Assembly: GCA_016927935.1 (NCBI GenBank)
Contig: JAFGLS010000239.1
Span: 4,390-68,389 of the forward strand
Source: Syntrophaceae bacterium
Lineage (GTDB): Bacteria; Desulfobacterota; Syntrophia; Syntrophales; Smithellaceae
Reading direction: 5' to 3'
Length of the DNA: 64,000 nucleotides
Positions 3,551 to 12,727 of this stretch are shown here, one piece after another. Below the pieces are notes generated by a model. It made no database searches and was not told the origin of the DNA. It worked only from the letters and a program-made list of their open reading frames with translations. Each line of letters starts with the position of its first letter. Positions within the stretch are counted from its first letter, which is position 1. A program made the position numbers and the translations under genes.

Positions 3551-4228
3551 TTACTCTATTTCACTTAGTTGCTCTATTACGATAAGCTCTGCAAATTCCT
3601 TAGCTTTATTCATTGGATGCCCTTCCTTGATAAGTCGTTTATATTCTTTCTTATATAATAATTCCCTTTTGTCTTTATCTTTCCTTTTTTTTGCCGCGTT
3701 TCTTGATCTTTGGGTTCTTTCTGCTTGTATATCTTTTGGTGTATGATTTTTCTTAGTGCATATAGAACAATATTTTTGATACTTATATAACTTTGATTGA
3801 TAAAAATACTTTTTACAATCATTACATTTTTTTATTTTGCGCAGATACTTTTCTGAATGTAGCAAAAACTTAATAAAGGTTGAAATAATATCTATTAGCC
3901 AAACAGGATAGTTAAGAAGAAAGGCTTTTCGTAACGATAACTCATTAATTTCATTATTCTCGATAAGTCGACCACTTTCAACACGGTATTTCTTAATTAT
4001 ATTATTTCCAATTTCTATAAAATGATCTAACTCTTTTGATTTAGATAGTTTGCCTTTATTAATTATTATATTTTCTAAAATATGTTTTAGCTTTTTTTGT
4101 GATTCCTTGATTGCTTTTCGCTCTTGCATTTTAATTGAAGCACTGAAGGGGTGATTATCTATAAGATTAGGTTTTACCAATACGCTATATTCATTATTCG
4201 CAAATTTCAAAACATCTTTTATGTCCAT
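3551..4228 (-). CDS. Hypothetical protein with a CGNR-like Cys4 zinc finger
   Basis: IKKCNDCKKYF...QKYCSIC followed by a basic helix. Confidence 0.65.
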   Translation of the reverse strand: MDIKDVLKFANNEYSVLVKPNLIDNHPFSASIKMQERKAIKESQKKLKHILENIIINKGKLSKSKELDHFIEIGNNIIKKYRVESGRLIENNEINELSLRKAFLLNYPVWLIDIISTFIKFLLHSEKYLRKIKKCNDCKKYFYQSKLYKYQKYCSICTKKNHTPKDIQAERTQRSRNAAKKRKDKDKRELLYKKEYKRLIKEGHPMNKAKEFAELIVIEQLSEIE

Positions 4229-4243
4229 TGCCTATCCCTCTCT

Positions 4244-4318
4244 AAGCTCCCCTTTGGTTTATCCGGGGAAGCGGGAAGGGGAATCTCCCGCTTATCGTCT
4301 GGCCTGACTATCCCCGGT
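4244..4318 (-). promoter_or_regulatory. GC-rich structured 5' leader; a partially deleted copy is at 9723-9772
   Basis: CCGGGGA/TCCCCGG outer stem and AAGCGGGA/TCCCGCTT inner stem; the sequence is duplicated. Confidence 0.45.
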
Positions 4319-4382
4319 TTGTTTGTGTAAAGCATACAAGCAAACATTGCTGAACTGCAATTAAAAATATTTTTAAAACTGG

Positions 4383-4420
4383 TAATCTTCCATTTTCTAT
4401 TTTGCCTTTTTATGATAACC
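4383..4420 (+). repeat. Recombination-site-like repeat, degenerate copy E
   Basis: TTTTCTATTTTGCCTTTTTATG(A/C)TAA shared with copy D at 7884-7940. Confidence 0.65.
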
Positions 4421-4461
4421 ATCTGCCGAAAAAAATTTAAGAAAAGGGGAATGTCTGGTTA

Positions 4462-4650
4462 ATGAAAATGGGGAAAAAGAATTTTGAACTTGATAAAGCC
4501 GAGTTATTAATTTTATGTCAGGCCTTAAACATTCTAAAAATCGAGGTAGAAGACGCTAACCGTAGGTCAGCTAAACATAAACCTAGAAAAGATATTACAC
4601 CGATTATTAATCTTACTACAAAAATAAAAGAACAGTTAAATGCTATATAA
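4462..4650 (+). CDS. Hypothetical protein
   Basis: 62-aa ORF between two repeat sites. Confidence 0.55.
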   Translation: MKMGKKNFELDKAELLILCQALNILKIEVEDANRRSAKHKPRKDITPIINLTTKIKEQLNAI

Positions 4651-4704
4651 AAAATATGTAGTAAATCAGAAAAGTGGAGCAGGTAAAAACACTATATCGG
4701 TTGC

Positions 4705-4770
4705 AACTTACAACCCGTAATCCACAGTTCTAAAATCTTCATTTTTATGCTAAGTTTGAACCTGAAATCT
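4705..4770 (+). repeat. Recombination-site-like repeat, copy A
   Basis: CTTACAACCCGTAA...AGTTCTAAAAT-cttcattt-TTATGCTAAGT-TTGAACCTGAAAT. Confidence 0.85.
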
Positions 4771-4832
4771 TTTAAAACTCATTAAAAATTTTATATAGGA
4801 ATTAATAGCCTATCACGGAAAATTATTAACTT

Positions 4833-5393
4833 ATGGTTTTCAAAATGTCGAATTTTTTAAAAAAGATGTTAGATGTTTTGGGCGGCTTATTTTTAATAAT
4901 AACAGGCTCAATAATATTTCTTCTCTATTTCTGTCTTAGAAACATAGCAGATAATGCTTTTATATCTTTATCGACATTTCTCTTTACTTTTTGTATGGGT
5001 TTAGGAGGAATAATTTTAGGAATAAGACGCATTTGTTTAGTTTTTGTATTTCTGTGGCAGAATTCAATCGCCATAAATAATGAATTAATCAATCAACAAG
5101 AAAAGCCTCAAAGAAAAAATGTATTATTAAGAATTGTTTTTGGTATTTTGTGGTTTATCCCCATTCATTTAGTCACTAATATAATGATTGGTGGCGTTGT
5201 CTGTGTGATAATTTTCAGTATGATAGCTGCTACATCTATGCATAGTTCTGGAGCTGTTTTTGATGCTGGATTAAAAGCATCTATTAACTTTTTTCGATAT
5301 TACGGATTTATTATCTTTGTCATACAATTTCTTCTAACCTTATTTTTATCTTTCTTTGGTGTATTACCAGGAACGAGTAAATTTAAAAGATAA
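4833..5393 (+). CDS. Hypothetical multi-pass membrane protein
   Basis: About four hydrophobic segments. Confidence 0.7.
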   Translation: MVFKMSNFLKKMLDVLGGLFLIITGSIIFLLYFCLRNIADNAFISLSTFLFTFCMGLGGIILGIRRICLVFVFLWQNSIAINNELINQQEKPQRKNVLLRIVFGILWFIPIHLVTNIMIGGVVCVIIFSMIAATSMHSSGAVFDAGLKASINFFRYYGFIIFVIQFLLTLFLSFFGVLPGTSKFKR

Positions 5394-5461
5394 AAGACAT
5401 AACTGGAACATTAATGGTCTATTTTTAAAGAAAATTCAATCATCTTTAACTTAAATAAAAT

Positions 5462-6052
5462 ATGTCAAAAGAAACCTTTATAGGAAAAGTTTTTGTTTTC
5501 CGAATTTTAAGTATTGGGTGTTTATTTAGCACAATTCTATTTCTCATACCCAATATTGGATTTGCACCTTTTGGTGAATTGAGCATATATATTTTACCAA
5601 TTCTTTTTATCTTTGGAGCTTTTATCTGTTGGAAAATACCGCCTTCGACAATTGAGGTTGACGAATCAGGCATAAAAAGACTTAACAATGCTACGGGTTG
5701 GATGTCAAAACTTCTGCGGCTCAACTCAGAATGTCAGTGGAACTGGATAGAGTCTGTTTCTACTATCCGAAGCTCAAAAGTTCATTACTACACAACTATC
5801 CTCAATGTTTCCAAAACTGTTCCTTATAAATCCAAATATCTTGTGTCAATCGAATCAAATTTTTTTAAAGATTATATATCGATTTTAAAAATAATAAGAA
5901 CCAAAGCTCCACAAGCTAATTTTGACGAGACTACAGAGTTGATTTTAAAAGGTCAAATAGACATACGTCCTATCAGACCGTTTTTTGTATATTTCTTAAT
6001 TATTTTTGGTTTAATAATATTTATCTATCTATTTTTTTGTAGCAAAAGTTAA
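5462..6052 (+). CDS. Hypothetical membrane protein (2 TM, PH-like soluble domain, C-terminal TM)
   Basis: Hydrophobic N-terminus, IEVDESGI..W.WIESV pattern. Confidence 0.7.
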   Translation: MSKETFIGKVFVFRILSIGCLFSTILFLIPNIGFAPFGELSIYILPILFIFGAFICWKIPPSTIEVDESGIKRLNNATGWMSKLLRLNSECQWNWIESVSTIRSSKVHYYTTILNVSKTVPYKSKYLVSIESNFFKDYISILKIIRTKAPQANFDETTELILKGQIDIRPIRPFFVYFLIIFGLIIFIYLFFCSKS

Positions 6053-6111
6053 CCAGTTAATGCAGTCAATAGCTTTGCTACTACGGGGCTTTAATGTTTA
6101 GTTTCTTTACC

Positions 6112-6178
6112 ACCTTACAACCCGTAAGTCACAGTTCTAATAATCTCAATTCTATGCTAACTTTGAACCCGAAGTCTT
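6112..6178 (+). repeat. Recombination-site-like repeat, copy B
   Basis: CTTACAACCCGTAAG...AGTTCTAATAA-tctcaatt-CTATGCTAACT-TTGAACCCGAAG. Confidence 0.85.
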
Positions 6179-6285
6179 CAACTTTTCAATCTGTAAAAAT
6201 AAAAATTCCTATTTAAAAATATTGACTAATTATTGTCACATATAATATAATTAAGACAATCCCTAATGAAAATAATGGTGAAATT

Positions 6286-6426
6286 ATGGACATCAAAGTT
6301 CCAGAGACGGTTTTGTCTTTAACAACAAAATGTGGAAATAATTTCTCGTGTCTGAAATCAAATAAGCATGAGAAACCCATTATGTGTGAAGTTGTTTATA
6401 AAAACGGGGAAAACATTCTTTATTGA
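6286..6426 (+). pseudogene. Probable 3'-truncated small Cys-rich protein gene
   Basis: MDIKVPETVLSLTTKCGNNFSCL...MCEV..NGENILY* resembles, from memory, the N-half of a deltaproteobacterial small Cys-rich family and stops early. Confidence 0.4.
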
Positions 6427-6436
6427 TTTTTAATAT

Positions 6437-6814
6437 ATGAAAAAAGAAAAAACATACAATATTTTATCATCTGTAAACGATAATGTGCTTGAGGTTATCA
6501 TAAAAGGAGATATTTCGAGTCTTAATAGCCACCAAACAATGTTGAACGAAATGCTTGACATAGAAAAGTCAGCAAACGTAAATAAGCAGTTGGTAGATAT
6601 CCGAAAGCTCAAGGGTCGTCTTACAACGATAGAATTATATAGTCTTGTCAGAGATTATCCGGCAGATAGACCCAGAATGATAATTGCCCTTGTGGATACT
6701 CCAGAATACGCCGAAACGGCATCATTTCATGAAACTACTGCATTCAATGCGGCTATAAAATTGAAATGGTTTACCGATATCGACAAAGCAAGAGAATGGC
6801 TCAAGGGCAAATAA
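6437..6814 (+). CDS. STAS/SEC14 (SpoIIAA-like) domain protein
   Basis: LVDIRKL...IALVD...F.ET.A.N....KWFTDIDKAREWL signature. Confidence 0.75.
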   Translation: MKKEKTYNILSSVNDNVLEVIIKGDISSLNSHQTMLNEMLDIEKSANVNKQLVDIRKLKGRLTTIELYSLVRDYPADRPRMIIALVDTPEYAETASFHETTAFNAAIKLKWFTDIDKAREWLKGK

Positions 6815-6883
6815 AGAGTTAATCTGTCAATTTGTCAGACCTCTATATTTCAATCTCAAATTTTCATTTTTAACGACTCTAAA

Positions 6884-6925
6884 ATACTGCACCTTTGTAG
6901 TTGGATAATCCTCAGTTTCTAATAT
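6884..6925 (+). repeat. 20-bp repeat (copy at 9615-9634) joined to half-site F (15-bp repeat with 7884-7898)
   Basis: ATACTGCACCTTTGTAGTTG followed by GATAATCCTCAGTTT. Confidence 0.8.
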
Positions 6926-6990
6926 ATTTAACACCAATAAAATTCTATAATACCCAATCCCCAAAAGACCTCATAAACAGGAGGTGTCCT

Positions 6991-7830
6991 ATGTTTACAA
7001 ACGAAGCTATAACTACTTTTAAGAATTATCTTCAATCAAATAGAAAAAAGAAAACCATCGAAAGCTATAATATTCTGTTTGAAAAATTTGGTTCTATTTA
7101 TGCTCACAGACCTCTTGAGGATATAAGCCCTGATGAGATTTTTCAATTTCTTGAAGATACAACAAGAAATCTTTCCAAGACAACTCGCAGACTTAGGTAT
7201 TCTCAGATAAAAGCATTTTATAACTTTATTATCGAAGGAAATTCTCTTAATATGAGTAATCCCTGTAATACACCGCTGCTAAACAAAACTTTCAGAATAC
7301 CGAAAAACTCACCCAGAAAGATCCTCGAACGAGAAACAATAGAAGAAATGATATATAATACAAAAAGTTATCGAGATCGGTTGATATTGGAACTTCAATC
7401 TAAATGTGGATTGAGAATCGGCGAACTGTTGAAACTTGAGGTATCAGATATTTCCGAAAGAACAATTACTCTGAGGGAACCAAAATCAGGCAAAGAAGTA
7501 GAAAAAGCTTACATGCCTGAAAACATATCAAGAAAACTATCTGAATACATATTAGAAAATAAGATTCAAGGAAACGAGCGTATTTTCCCTATATCTTATT
7601 CAACAGCCAGATCAATTATCAGAGGACTTGGAGCTAAGCTGAAAGTGAATGTTGCACCACATGACCTCAGGCGATATTCGGCAACTTTTGCCAGCAGAAA
7701 TGGTGTTCCTTTAGAAGTGGTATCAAAAGTAATATTGAGGCATCAGGACTTGAAGACTACACAGGTGTATTTAGGAAGGATCAGTGATTCAGAGGCAATA
7801 AGATGGATGGATATTCTCCACGAGAAATAG
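6991..7830 (+). CDS. Tyrosine recombinase (XerC/D-like, 279 aa)
   Basis: GGAGGT RBS before ATG 6991; catalytic residues GLRIGE, PKSG, HDLRR, LRH, TTQVY intact. Confidence 0.93.
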   Translation: MFTNEAITTFKNYLQSNRKKKTIESYNILFEKFGSIYAHRPLEDISPDEIFQFLEDTTRNLSKTTRRLRYSQIKAFYNFIIEGNSLNMSNPCNTPLLNKTFRIPKNSPRKILERETIEEMIYNTKSYRDRLILELQSKCGLRIGELLKLEVSDISERTITLREPKSGKEVEKAYMPENISRKLSEYILENKIQGNERIFPISYSTARSIIRGLGAKLKVNVAPHDLRRYSATFASRNGVPLEVVSKVILRHQDLKTTQVYLGRISDSEAIRWMDILHEK

Positions 7831-7883
7831 AATAAAAAACTAAAAATGAAGAGGTCTTTGGGGTATAAATATTTAGTCTTCCT

Positions 7884-7940
7884 GATAATCCTCAGTTTTC
7901 TATTTTGCCTTTTTATGCTAATTTTCAACTTGAAATCTTC
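7884..7940 (+). repeat. Recombination-site-like repeat, copy D
   Basis: TAATCCTC-AGTTTTCTATT-ttgccttt-TTATGCTAATT-TTCAACTTGAAATCTT. Confidence 0.75.
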
Positions 7941-8025
7941 GGAGTTTGTATTATTTGTAATGACCAAATGGACAATATTTTAAATCAAAAATGGCATAAA
8001 ATTGACGACAATATGAACGATATAA

Positions 8026-8769
8026 TTGAAGAGAATGAATAATAATGTAATCAGAACATCAAGTCTGATGTGGCTCCGTGTTTTACTACTTACGCCAATG
8101 GCCGTTATTGGCGGTTTTATAGGCCAGATTGCTTTCGACCTGATCAACACAAACCCATCAACTTATGGTAAATTGAATAGTTTTTTAATTGACATTATTA
8201 TTCAGCCGATTGTGCATGATTTTTGGCATGCCTTTGGTATTTCTATAGCATTGCTCAGATGGGTTTTTGGCTCTGGTGCTTTGGCATTGAGTATCTCTTT
8301 TTATTTGCGAGTTTCCGCAAAAAAGTTATTTGGTATGTTCTTGGCTGGCTGCTTTTTAGGATTCATAGGTTTTCTTCTGGTAGGCTTTTTATTAGAAGTT
8401 GTTCCGATGGAAGTATATCGTTGGCTTGCTGTTCCATATACTGTCGAAAGAGTTATGCCACCTATGATTATATGTTTTTTAATAGGGCTTATCTTAAAAG
8501 AAACTCGCTCCTTTAGTTGGAAATTTGCACTTGCAGGTTTCTTAGGCGGTCTGTTAGGCACCAAGCTCATTATATTTTCATCTATGGAACTGTATCAAAT
8601 AATAGATACAATGCTAATAAATATAGGGCTGCAACATGTTAATGCTATGCGGCTAATAGAAACTTTTTTCATCATGCTCTTTACTAATTTCCTATGTCTC
8701 AGTTTTTTAAATGAATCACTACGTTACAAGGAAATTAAAGCAACAAAAGGTAACGGGGGCAGGTCTTGA
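8026..8769 (+). CDS. Hypothetical multi-pass membrane protein
   Basis: About 6-7 Gly-rich hydrophobic helices. Confidence 0.7.
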   Translation: MKRMNNNVIRTSSLMWLRVLLLTPMAVIGGFIGQIAFDLINTNPSTYGKLNSFLIDIIIQPIVHDFWHAFGISIALLRWVFGSGALALSISFYLRVSAKKLFGMFLAGCFLGFIGFLLVGFLLEVVPMEVYRWLAVPYTVERVMPPMIICFLIGLILKETRSFSWKFALAGFLGGLLGTKLIIFSSMELYQIIDTMLINIGLQHVNAMRLIETFFIMLFTNFLCLSFLNESLRYKEIKATKGNGGRS

Positions 8770-8805
8770 AATATCAGTTTGTATTGTCAGACTTGATAAT
8801 TGTTC

Positions 8806-8870
8806 AACCTTACAACCCGTAAGTCTCAGTTTTCATAAATCCGATTTTATGCTAACTTTGAACCTATAAT
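8806..8870 (+). repeat. Recombination-site-like repeat, copy C
   Basis: CTTACAACCCGTAAG...AGTTTTCATAA-atccgatt-TTATGCTAACT-TTGAACC. Confidence 0.85.
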
Positions 8871-8944
8871 CAAAAAAATATTTTACGCTATAATGTTGAG
8901 TAATTTTTACCATAAACTGACCATAGTCAAAATTTAGTAAACAT

Positions 8945-9535
8945 ATGGCTTTTGATTTTTTAAGAAAAACAAAACGTAAAGAGATTATGTCTGCACCTCA
9001 TTGGCTAAAGATAGAACCCATGGGATGGGAAATGCCGATGATTATCATTATCATTCTTTATTCCATCGCGACTGCTTTATTTGCAATGTTTATCGTGGGT
9101 TTTCTTAATTATCCGCCTGCGACTAGTTGGACAAAAATTATAGTCGGTTGTATTTTTGGTTGTGGAATCTATGCAGCCGCGTTAATAGGAATTGGATATA
9201 TTTCTAAAAAAAAACCACTAATATTGACGGAGAGAGGCATAATAGGACCATATTTTATAGCTATAAAGTGGAATGATATTAAAAGTTATAAATGGGAAAC
9301 GTTTAAAGGACCTACAAGAATGGCAAATGCACCAAAAGGTGGAGGTATAAGTTTATTTATAAGAGATGAAAGAGTAATACCGCATTACGTTGACAGATTT
9401 GGGCATACAGTATTTGCTAATATGGGTTATTTTTTTAACCAGGATCAAATCACAAAAACTGATGAAATTTTTCAGAGATTAGGAATAGGAAAAATAAAGA
9501 TGGAGGAAATGTTAGGCTTAATAGATATTAAATAA
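8945..9535 (+). CDS. Hypothetical membrane protein (2 TM plus PH-like domain)
   Basis: Two TM helices, then LILTERGI...IKWNDIKSY. Confidence 0.7.
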   Translation: MAFDFLRKTKRKEIMSAPHWLKIEPMGWEMPMIIIIILYSIATALFAMFIVGFLNYPPATSWTKIIVGCIFGCGIYAAALIGIGYISKKKPLILTERGIIGPYFIAIKWNDIKSYKWETFKGPTRMANAPKGGGISLFIRDERVIPHYVDRFGHTVFANMGYFFNQDQITKTDEIFQRLGIGKIKMEEMLGLIDIK

Positions 9536-9564
9536 CCTTCTGGTAATAGTTTTGCCCGGTCGGT

Positions 9565-9592
9565 TATATCATTGCAACTTTGAACCTGAAAT
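9565..9592 (+). repeat. Collapsed/hybrid site G
   Basis: TATATC-A-TTGCAACTT (left flank of copy A) joined directly to TGAACCTGAAAT (right box of copy A). Confidence 0.7.
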
Positions 9593-9614
9593 TCGCAATG
9601 TTGACATCCACAAT

Positions 9615-9634
9615 ATACTGCACCTTTGTAGTTG
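9615..9634 (+). repeat. Second copy of the 20-bp direct repeat
   Basis: Identical to 6884-6903. Confidence 0.85.
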
Positions 9635-9913
9635 AAAGAAATAGGTAACTACTAACCTTCTTTGTGCAATTCAATTACATTATTGTTTGTTGCCGCGTCT
9701 ATGATCTGTCCGGCCAATGTTGAAGCTCCCCTGTATTAATCCGGGGAAACTCCCGCTTAACGTCTGGCCTGAATATTAAAAAATAAGAATATTTATCTCT
9801 AAAAGAGAATTTGATATTTTCTCTATAAGGGTGTAAAAAAAATTAATCATAAAATTCAAAAAACAGGTATTATTTATCATATCTAGCTTATTGCGTATTA
9901 AGGACAATAACCA

Positions 9914-10762
9914 ATGGAAGGTGCAATTTTTACAATTTTTATAATCGCGCTTGCTATATTGGGTTTTAGATGGTTGGTGAAAAAAAATGAAGAAATCGAT
10001 CGCCAAAATAAGGCAATAGCACTTGCAAAAATTAATAAAGAAAAAGAAGAACAAAGACAAAGAGAAAGACAAAATCAAATAGCAAAAGATCAAGCCGCAA
10101 AAGCTGAAACGGAAGAACAAGAAAGAAACAAAGATCTTTTTAAAAGGAATAAAGATCTTATTGATAAGTTTCTACAAATTGCAGAACGGAAGATTTCAAT
10201 AATTGATGAATATGGTGATGAGAACTGGGAGGTTTTACCTTCCGAAATTTTGACTTGTTTGAAAAAAATAGCACAACGTGAAAAAAAGGATATAAATTTA
10301 AAAAAAGATGATTTTTGGTGGCCAAAGCAATATAAATGGTTAAAACAAGAATTAGAAATTTCTTTTCGTTCATATCATGCAAAACAAAAAAATAATTCAA
10401 CAAAGAACGATAATTTAAGTGAAATGAGTGGTACGGAGTTTGAGTCATGGGTTGTTAAAATATTAAAAGAAAATGGGTTTGATGATGTTAGAGGGACTCC
10501 AACGACTGGTGATCAGGGTGCTGACATTATAGCATATAAAGGGGAAAGGCATATTGTTATTCAAGCAAAAAGGCATAAAGGTTCAGTTGGAAATAAAGCG
10601 GTGCAAGAAGTGATAGGTGCTTTGCAATATTATGGAGGAAATGAAGGTTGGGTAATTACAAATTCTACATTCACTCAGTCTGCAATAGCTCTTGCTCAAA
10701 AAAGCAATATTAGACTCATTGATGGTCGAGCCTTAAAATATATTGAGGATTTTGTATTTTGA
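9914..10762 (+). CDS. Mrr-family (type IV) restriction endonuclease with N-terminal membrane anchor
   Basis: MSGTEFE...GDQGADII....IVIQAKRH...VG..AVQE...VITNS.FT..A...A Mrr_cat motif; N-terminal TM and coiled coil. Confidence 0.88.
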   Translation: MEGAIFTIFIIALAILGFRWLVKKNEEIDRQNKAIALAKINKEKEEQRQRERQNQIAKDQAAKAETEEQERNKDLFKRNKDLIDKFLQIAERKISIIDEYGDENWEVLPSEILTCLKKIAQREKKDINLKKDDFWWPKQYKWLKQELEISFRSYHAKQKNNSTKNDNLSEMSGTEFESWVVKILKENGFDDVRGTPTTGDQGADIIAYKGERHIVIQAKRHKGSVGNKAVQEVIGALQYYGGNEGWVITNSTFTQSAIALAQKSNIRLIDGRALKYIEDFVF

Positions 10763-12683: not shown

Positions 12684-12727
12684 GTCTGCAAAACCGTTAT
12701 TCCCCGGTTCAAGTCCGGGTGCCTCCA
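12684..12727 (+). pseudogene. attR: displaced 3' fragment of tRNA-Cys(GCA) with a 3-nt acceptor-stem deletion
   Basis: GT-CTGCAAA-ACCGT anticodon arm, CCCGG-TTCAAGT-CCGGG T-arm, then TGCC-T-CCA; no 5' half. Confidence 0.85.

Follow-up and report, generated by a model that had tools for sequence, protein, structure and literature searches.

What kind of element arranges small genes in a row, each preceded by the same short sequence and all read in one direction, around a gene for a tyrosine recombinase? The question is raised by positions 4379-9634 of the window, a stretch of 64,000 nt that is part of contig C65 in the genome of a Syntrophaceae bacterium (3.38 Mb, 239 contigs, 91% complete); coordinates given without a contig or locus name refer to this window. 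An original prediction, made from the letters alone, had described the region as an integron-like cassette array that uses dif-like sites and a Xer-like recombinase and is nested in a tRNA island. We consider the chances about even that the region is one array of a gene-cassette system which is driven by this recombinase, is not an integron, and is found across the order Syntrophales.

A repeat search identified a family of 68-nt direct repeats at 4704, 6111, 7872 and 8806, with 66–82% identity to the first copy. Its core pattern, AGTTY-N14-YTATGCTAA, has four matches in the window where 0.15 would be expected, a count reached in none of 100 shuffles, and the whole 3.38-Mb genome contains just these four matches, all of them inside the array. 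The left 14-mer CTTACAACCCGTAA occurs three times against an expectation of 0.03, which again no shuffle reached, and the 15-mer GATAATCCTCAGTTT occurs twice, at 6904 and 7884, flanking the recombinase gene. The seven predicted copies, four of them full or nearly full and three partial, are thus present and far beyond chance, and they do part co-oriented blocks of one or two genes. In the middle of the array lies, as claimed, an intact open reading frame (ORF) for a Xer-like recombinase of 279 amino acids (aa) with its catalytic motifs in place, here called rec. The remaining array ORFs (62, 186, 196, 125, 247 and 196 aa) have its orientation, and none has a Pfam match. Two further details could be read directly: copy C has arms that match as inverted repeats at 9 of 11 positions, and no two of the four fuller copies share the same 8-bp spacer.

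The best NCBIfam match of rec is the archaeal XerA model, with 122.6 bits under a cutoff of 220. Scores against the XerD and XerC models were 71.7 and 68.6 bits (cutoffs 329.6 and 335), and those against the integron-integrase models TIGR02249 and NF011946 were 52.4 and 19.9 bits (cutoffs 265 and 435). The protein is colinear from end to end with archaeal XerA (PDB 5hxy), the Arg, Lys, His-x-x-Arg, His and Tyr motifs being present, and the alignment contains no inserted domain relative to XerA structures. The expectation that it would lack the IntI-specific insertion was therefore borne out. Because all family scores remain under their cutoffs and the alignment is free of an inserted domain, we place rec, on the evidence of its sequence, among Xer-like recombinases outside every named Xer or IntI family.

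Homologs of rec are numerous, with 1764 clusters in public data at E ≤ 1e-20, at least 120 of these being 71–81% identical; the named sources of close homologs are Syntrophales, Smithellaceae and Syntrophaceae. A search of 116 genomes of the family identified homologs of 72–81% identity in nine other genomes. There are one to three copies per genome, some of which are broken (G011, G037, G069, G007, G003). At nearly all loci a 13-nt inverted repeat brackets the rec ORF, and it is kept across homologs that are 59–81% identical to the query. The left arm of this repeat starts a few bases past a TATAAT box, so that it would sit at the 5′ end of the mRNA.

The sites are not private to a single array, as had been supposed. 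A sequence-only model (R1), which was built from 17 sites, some of them adjacent to rec, matches the genome of the window 43 times (E ≤ 0.05). Matches are also found in 106 of the 116 family genomes (E ≤ 0.01), many of which have at least 42 scored candidates, and in 53 of the 151 genomes sampled from the order (E ≤ 1e-6), representing 18 of 24 families. None of the best 32 sites of the window's genome (E < 0.001) is overlapped by a large ORF, and the gene is co-oriented with the site in 27 of 31 cases downstream and in 24 of 30 upstream. The conserved columns among 78 aligned sites are the heptamer CTTCCTG, the (T/A)A that follows it, and ATgCtA..TTtCAA.c.GtAAT about 38 nt past the heptamer. 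Around rec homologs CTTCCTG is followed by some 30 variable bases and then, at a constant offset of 43–44, by a block that resembles ACATTTCAAnCnGTAAT. A unit often closes with an end box that finishes in TTTGTAGG.

No consensus structure was obtained with RNAalifold from 24 genome copies or from the 17 model copies, on either strand, with mean z values of +0.14 and +0.26. A reading of the site as a hairpin or RNA structure was rejected on this basis. The statement that the sites are not attC sites stands, as they have no conserved fold and mean z values around zero on both strands. By the same folding test they lack the palindromic hairpin units of repetitive extragenic palindromes and bacterial interspersed mosaic elements (REP/BIME-type repeats).

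Several observations connect rec with these sites. Among 80 metagenomic rec loci, 77 of 85 R1 matches lie on the rec strand, including all of the best 67. Heptamer and block are found 3′ of rec in 37 of 71 non-duplicate loci, and 30 of these 37 sites start between +99 and +114 past the last rec codon, with a mode at 107–108 (the distance is 51 in the window). When rec loci of 85–98% identity are compared in pairs, the homology is confined to a module of about 1.09 kb. Its right-hand ends cluster at +111 to +120, the end of CTTCCTG, while left-hand ends are often at -123 to -140, corresponding to TTTGTA|GGTGC, with others at -58, -78/-85, -175 and -231. A metagenomic contig of 1086 nt (L074) starts at the left module edge GTAGGTGC and ends 10 bases beyond a variant heptamer, so that it represents almost exactly the module. 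At the level of the order, sites occur in 14 of 22 genomes with rec and in 39 of 129 without it, a comparison in which related genomes are non-independent and R1 was partly trained near rec. We conclude that rec is physically and evolutionarily tied to the site, as far as comparison of loci can tell. The original prediction was to be abandoned if sites occurred genome-wide and had no link to the recombinase or to variable cargo; the sites are indeed genome-wide, but the link holds.

For a survey of arrays elsewhere, 14 regions rich in R1 matches were chosen from eight other genomes. They contain 60 sites (E ≤ 0.1) in runs of three to seven on one strand, spaced 0.4–1.8 kb apart. Between neighbouring sites there is usually one ORF, nearly always co-oriented, with two clear exceptions, a 246-aa LuxR-type gene and a 185-aa gene. 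The cargo of these arrays includes a TRL-like lipoprotein, nitronate monooxygenase, DUF3047, a PEMT-like methyltransferase, glyoxalase and an aldo-keto reductase with an Fe-S domain, along with many proteins that have no match. Cargo overall is similarly mixed, with methyltransferases, amidase, GmrSD, old yellow enzyme (OYE) and LuxR, and many members without a Pfam match. Several array-rich genomes that lack rec are assembled in 2–9 contigs. Around two dispersed sites the neighbouring genes were not syntenic between species, so that presence or absence at the site edges was unreadable there; at orthologs of flanking genes in relatives a site was found at 0 of 9 loci for the left gene and at 1 of 7 for the amidase. 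The genus also has two more abundant repeat families, of about 120–140 nt (C21:18985-19126) and about 610 nt (L190:1-620), with many copies per genome.

Order and content of the arrays vary, in line with what had been predicted, as cassettes differ between related contigs and species. A unit of about 1 kb, consisting of a site, a reversed LuxR-type gene and an end box, directly follows rec in L061, directly precedes it in L072, and belongs to an array in L196, from a genome that lacks rec. In all three its homology begins right after the heptamer; it runs to TTTGTAGGTG in L196 and L072 and stops three bases earlier, at TTTGTA, in L061. A second, small cassette is 90% identical between L199 and L075, and an NHL/ankyrin segment that lies 3 kb after rec in L028 is found 3.7 kb before rec in L061. 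A 229-aa cassette is 92–93% identical in two other species, where the neighbouring core gene, at 79–80% identity, is on other contigs. A unit of one site and a reversed 185-aa ORF without Pfam match (L190:2119-2884, with copies in L213-L217) is multi-copy across the genus at 74–78% identity and mostly has sites on its flanks; at least five copies are present in G039.

Two other joins were noted. L075 and L076 are 99.9% identical over 7249 nt and then split at a ribosome-binding site 235 nt past a site, not at the site itself; from there L075 and L076 part, one leading into an ORF and the other entering what appears to be the middle of a gene, which may represent a deletion or an assembly join. 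A joint from 4396 to 9836 in the Logan contigs of one run (15 pieces of 24–56 nt) had 22 letters on its shorter side; it was dismissed as spurious and is neutral with respect to circles.

Of the possible explanations we favour a cassette system whose basic unit is one or two genes, led in each case by a boundary site of some 70 nt that keeps a single orientation. In its usual form this site consists of the invariant CTTCCTG, about 30 variable nt, and the block ATGCTA-NN-TTTCAA-N-C-N-GTAAT, and rec is itself a module of about 1.09 kb between end box and heptamer. We infer that rec excises and integrates units at the boxes, with a crossover in the invariant heptamer and/or in the adjacent G(T/A)AATCC box. 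Arrays without rec would be left over or served in trans, similar to those arrays of integrons that have no integrase. In addition, an outward promoter in the middle of the site is plausible.

Instead of the heptamer, sites A, B and C carry TTACAACCCGTAA(T/G), which is a second block of the 22-nt type, and the sequence then runs on into TCC(A/T)CAGTT, as it does after the heptamer elsewhere. In the related array L028 these two boxes are 95–160 nt apart, or about 1.2 kb apart where rec lies between them. On account of these distances, sites A, B and C resemble junctions that have lost a rec-type filler, such as a deletion between the two G(T/A)AATCC boxes would leave, and the 15-nt direct repeat that flanks rec would fit the same idea. 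A wider proposal, to which we give somewhat less than an even chance, is that Syntrophales hold a second, integron-independent cassette system: hundreds of single-gene units with double-stranded sites of about 70 nt (CTTCCTG plus the 22-nt block) and possibly their own promoters would be moved by a cassette-borne XerA-like recombinase, kept in many small arrays on chromosome and islands, and exchanged between species.

A number of observations weigh against a cassette system driven by rec. The richest arrays are located in genomes without a rec match at E ≤ 1e-10 (G039, G044, G045-G048, G058). The unit architecture is not uniform: of 114 full sites, 40 have a second block upstream and 18 have an end box, compared with 13 and 6 in control windows. 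Sites A, B and C in the window have no heptamer. A conserved dyad of the 11-6/8-11 kind, as in a Xer core, was absent among the 78 aligned sites. Some shared cassettes begin within or past the site rather than at the heptamer, and in 18 other loci none of the window's cargo was found besides rec. A hotspot at C4:5525-15570 (L038), where the gap between two conserved genes ranges across the genus from 66 nt (G043, G046) to about 11.5 kb (G023), is not used as support, its variable DNA in 19 relatives being almost free of sites with one clear match. None of eight short rec contigs, five of them of about 1.1 kb, has a terminal overlap of at least 15 nt and hence a sign of a circle, and the data examined contained no recombination reaction in the form of reads, circles or empty sites.

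Other mobile elements use the same positions. An unrelated 2.1-kb element that encodes two tyrosine recombinases (383 and 297 aa) has CTTCCTG at both sides in eight loci; at a ninth (L207) only its left end is present, also at CTTCCTG. It is represented by L026:2896-5016, with copies in L029/L070, L204-L209 and L022, five copies being present in genome G096, and has the inverted ends CTATACGTACC and GGTTCGTATAG. Inverted arms around a 7-bp core are the classical layout of a tyrosine-recombinase attachment site. Past the right-hand CTTCCTG there often follows the rest of a normal site. Group II intron domains (Rfam) were found at L076:8276-8406 and L029:6872-7681, the intron starting right after TTGTAGG of the end box; 3′ of the intron, the L029 sequence resumes with TGCATTATGCAG, the start of the rec module.

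In a rival reading the 70-nt element would be mainly regulatory, a promoter with operators serving a large accessory regulon and maintained in front of many unrelated genes; rec, the two-recombinase element and the group II intron would use it as a safe and abundant target, and shuffling would be due to homologous recombination between repeats. The conservation of blocks at set distances, with variable sequence in between, would suit this reading, as would the intergenic position of the sites, with starts of the mostly co-oriented downstream genes 5–250 nt past the site, and the persistence of arrays in genomes without rec. Site L028:2784 leads straight into a ribosome-binding site and start codon, and in our own reading the genus consensus TTTTCA-17 bp-TGcTAGgTT may resemble a -35 and extended -10 box. 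However, in the reversed-gene cassettes (246 and 185 aa) the site is at the end where the others have it, so that it is not the promoter of those genes, and orthologs of flanking genes in relatives mostly lack a site. The fixed position of the site past rec, across homologs of 59–81% identity to the query, and the homology edges exactly at the heptamer also argue against it. A consensus promoter scan, which found 26 promoters in the region against 25.6 expected and left the sites uncalled, gave no excess over shuffles and is uninformative. We regard a mainly regulatory element as unlikely. A little less likely still is that rec itself is a minimal, selfish insertion element that measures about 1.09 kb and inserts between end box and heptamer, that junction fillers without rec are its deleted remains, similar to miniature inverted-repeat transposable elements (MITEs), and that cassettes are not moved by rec. 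Diverged rec copies do have only the module in common, with recurrent ends, many metagenomic rec contigs are just about 1.1 kb long, and the one to three copies of rec per genome, some of them broken, would be in keeping with such an element. Junctions without rec start with GGTG and end with CTTCCTG, and in L028 positions 3961-4070 are homologous to the 3′ flank of rec. But the ends have no duplicated core, as CTTTGTA on the left and CTTCCTG on the right match at 4 of 7 positions, and neither a circle nor a pair with an empty site was found among the loci examined. Selfish insertion also leaves unexplained the shared edges and cross-species movement of whole cassettes, and the missing end box of most sites.

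The label dif-like, under which the sites were originally predicted, would imply a Xer reaction on 11-bp arms around an 8-bp spacer, of the kind known from plasmid dif (pdif) sites and integrative mobile elements exploiting Xer recombination (IMEX), possibly carried out by host XerC and XerD. It draws on the arm symmetry of copy C, on the Xer-like nature of rec, and on the right arm TTATGCTAA, which resembles a XerD arm and matches the Syntrophus dif arm TTATGTAAACC, as given in the text section of PMC2731167 consulted, at 8 of 11 positions. Yet the left arm and spacer are unconserved in the 78 aligned sites, where the right arm keeps only A-T-x-C-x-A, so that the alignment largely refutes this reading. 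The spacers also differ between copies, and differing spacers block a complete strand exchange by a classical tyrosine recombinase. The sites are direct repeats throughout, without the opposite-orientation pairs of pdif modules, and rec scores under the XerC, XerD and XerA family cutoffs. Moreover, the host has a separate dif candidate, a single 28-bp sequence with a 6-bp spacer on the minus strand of contig C52 (near position 338), which differs by four mismatches from the dif of Syntrophus aciditrophicus in the same section of PMC2731167 and is likely to be the chromosomal dif of the organism. The label fails because arm and spacer are unconserved and because of this separate candidate, and we consider dif-like sites highly improbable.

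The cassette system that we favour can be compared with four known types. To our knowledge, integrons, which rely on a single enzyme clade (IntI) and on attC sites that fold, are the sole platform for the storage and reshuffling of single-gene cassettes that is well understood. As in integrons and in clusters of attC sites lacking integron-integrases (CALINs), there are arrays of mostly promoter-proximal, co-oriented single-gene cassettes with mixed or unknown functions, a tyrosine recombinase gene attached to the array, arrays without a recombinase, and cassettes common to species; group II introns target the boundary elements, as they do attC sites. Unlike in integrons, the recombinase is not an IntI-type integrase and shows no additional domain compared with XerA; the sites, having neither hairpin potential nor R″/R′ ends, are not attC sites; each genome has many small arrays; and no attI-like single entry point was seen. 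The recombinase gene is, in addition, a module inside the array with the same direction as the cassettes, and the site may carry its own promoter. What is shared with integrons is thus a co-oriented array of diverse cargo next to a recombinase. The system seems to work like an integron in the absence of both features that define one.

It likewise differs from Xer/dif resolution, as rec is no XerC, XerD or XerA equivalog and the genome has 43 sites instead of a single 28-bp site of 11-6-11 structure. In Acinetobacter pdif modules and IMEX, short accessory-gene modules are also bounded by Xer-family recombination sites. There, host XerC/XerD act on true 11-6-11 dif-like sites, and the sites of pdif modules alternate in orientation; here, the array sites are all on one strand, being direct repeats of about 70 nt without a conserved dyad, and a separate, small recombinase is borne by the array. 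The Mycoplasma Xer1 vsp/vpma loci similarly have a Xer-like recombinase beside genes that each possess a conserved upstream site region, and many of the cargo proteins described here are membrane or secreted proteins, which recalls the surface proteins of those loci. Those systems, however, invert DNA between oppositely oriented genes of one family, whereas the genes here are unrelated, co-oriented and dispersed genome-wide, so that an exchange would delete or insert but not invert. Insertion sequences (IS) with MITE-like derivatives, and IS that target intergenic repeats, resemble the system in the one-gene module of 1.09 kb, its recurrent ends and the remnants without rec, and in the precise insertion of a second element at the heptamer. 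They differ in having a DDE or HUH transposase in place of a tyrosine recombinase, and the repeats here bound gene cassettes; the outer ends of the rec module are free of terminal inverted repeats, and neither a duplicated target nor an empty site was found for it.

The low-GC stretch that holds the array (25–34% GC compared with 40–45% elsewhere) is an integrative island of about 13.8 kb. It is delimited by a tRNA-Gly/tRNA-Cys pair with an integrase gene (C65:3167-4440) and by a 40-nt tRNA-Cys repeat; the tRNA-Cys and the gene for the 396-aa integrase occupy C65:3250-4440, 1.1 kb upstream on the contig. The island that had been predicted is therefore real, with its integrase and its repeat, but the tRNA itself is outside the window, in which a tRNA scan found no tRNA gene. 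The island further contains genes of AlpA-like, helicase-like and Mrr-like (9914-10762) type. On either side of the array is a copy of the int-alpA RNA motif (4250-4318 and about 9715-9776), the two in direct orientation; the right copy is shortened and has no gene downstream on the same strand. The features are collected in Table 1.

Table 1. Positions of the array, its boundary sites and the flanking island features in the window.
Feature	Position	Strand	Remarks
int-alpA RNA motif, left of array	4250..4318	-	Rfam RF02996, 37.9 bits, reaching the gathering score of 35.8; directly upstream of DUF6076-like and AlpA-like island genes
Boundary site E, partial, first	4379..4418	+	88% identity to 7882-7921; GGTAATC box, then middle part as in site D
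Cassette 1 ORF, 62 aa	4462..4650	+	no Pfam match
Boundary site A	4704..4771	+	R1 46.1 bits; TTACAACCCGTAAT block in place of CTTCCTG, variable middle, then ATGCTAAGTTTGAACCTGAAAT
Cassette 2, first ORF, 186 aa, hydrophobic	4833..5393	+	no Pfam match
Cassette 2, second ORF, 196 aa	5462..6052	+	no Pfam match
Boundary site B	6111..6178	+	R1 41.4 bits
Cassette 3 ORF, 125 aa	6437..6814	+	no Pfam match
End box copy 1, left edge of recombinase module, ends in CTTTGTAGTTG	6848..6903	+	75% identity to 9579-9634; homologous boxes precede rec at other loci
GATAATCCTCAGTTT box	6904..6922	+	direct repeat of the box at 7884
Inverted-repeat left arm CCCCAAAAGACCTC, just after TATAAT (6946-6951)	6959..6972	+	pairs with 7851-7863; kept in 10 genome loci and in a 70-locus consensus
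rec, Xer-like tyrosine recombinase, 279 aa, intact	6991..7830	+	Pfam Phage_integrase (1e-20) and SAM_1
Inverted-repeat right arm GAGGTCTTTGGGG	7851..7863	+	pairs with 6959-6972
Boundary site D, sole window copy with canonical CTTCCTG (7878-7884)	7872..7939	+	R1 48 bits
Cassette ORF, 247 aa, hydrophobic	8026..8769	+	no Pfam match
Boundary site C	8806..8873	+	repeat search and model R1
Last cassette ORF, 196 aa	8945..9535	+	no Pfam match
Partial site G and end box copy 2 (9579-9634), right end of array	9565..9634	+	56-nt pair with 6848-6903, 75%
int-alpA motif, second copy, shortened, right of array	9743..9776	-	91% identity to 4278-4311
attR of tRNA-Cys island	12684..12723	+	40-nt repeat of the 3′ part of the tRNA

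No description of such a system was found in the full-text literature searched, whose coverage excludes supplements and subscription journals, and the portion of a 2026 paper on comparative genomics of Smithellaceae (PMC13685792) that was consulted has no mention of such a recombinase or cassette system. The analysis defines an enzyme and candidate sites, together with natural arrays that have the enzyme and others that lack it. If the proposed system is real, a 279-aa recombinase and a short site would form a compact pair of tools for experiments. The cassette architecture would then have evolved more than once, here with another tyrosine recombinase and with unstructured, double-stranded sites, and its activity would partly explain the very low conservation of gene order in these syntrophic bacteria.

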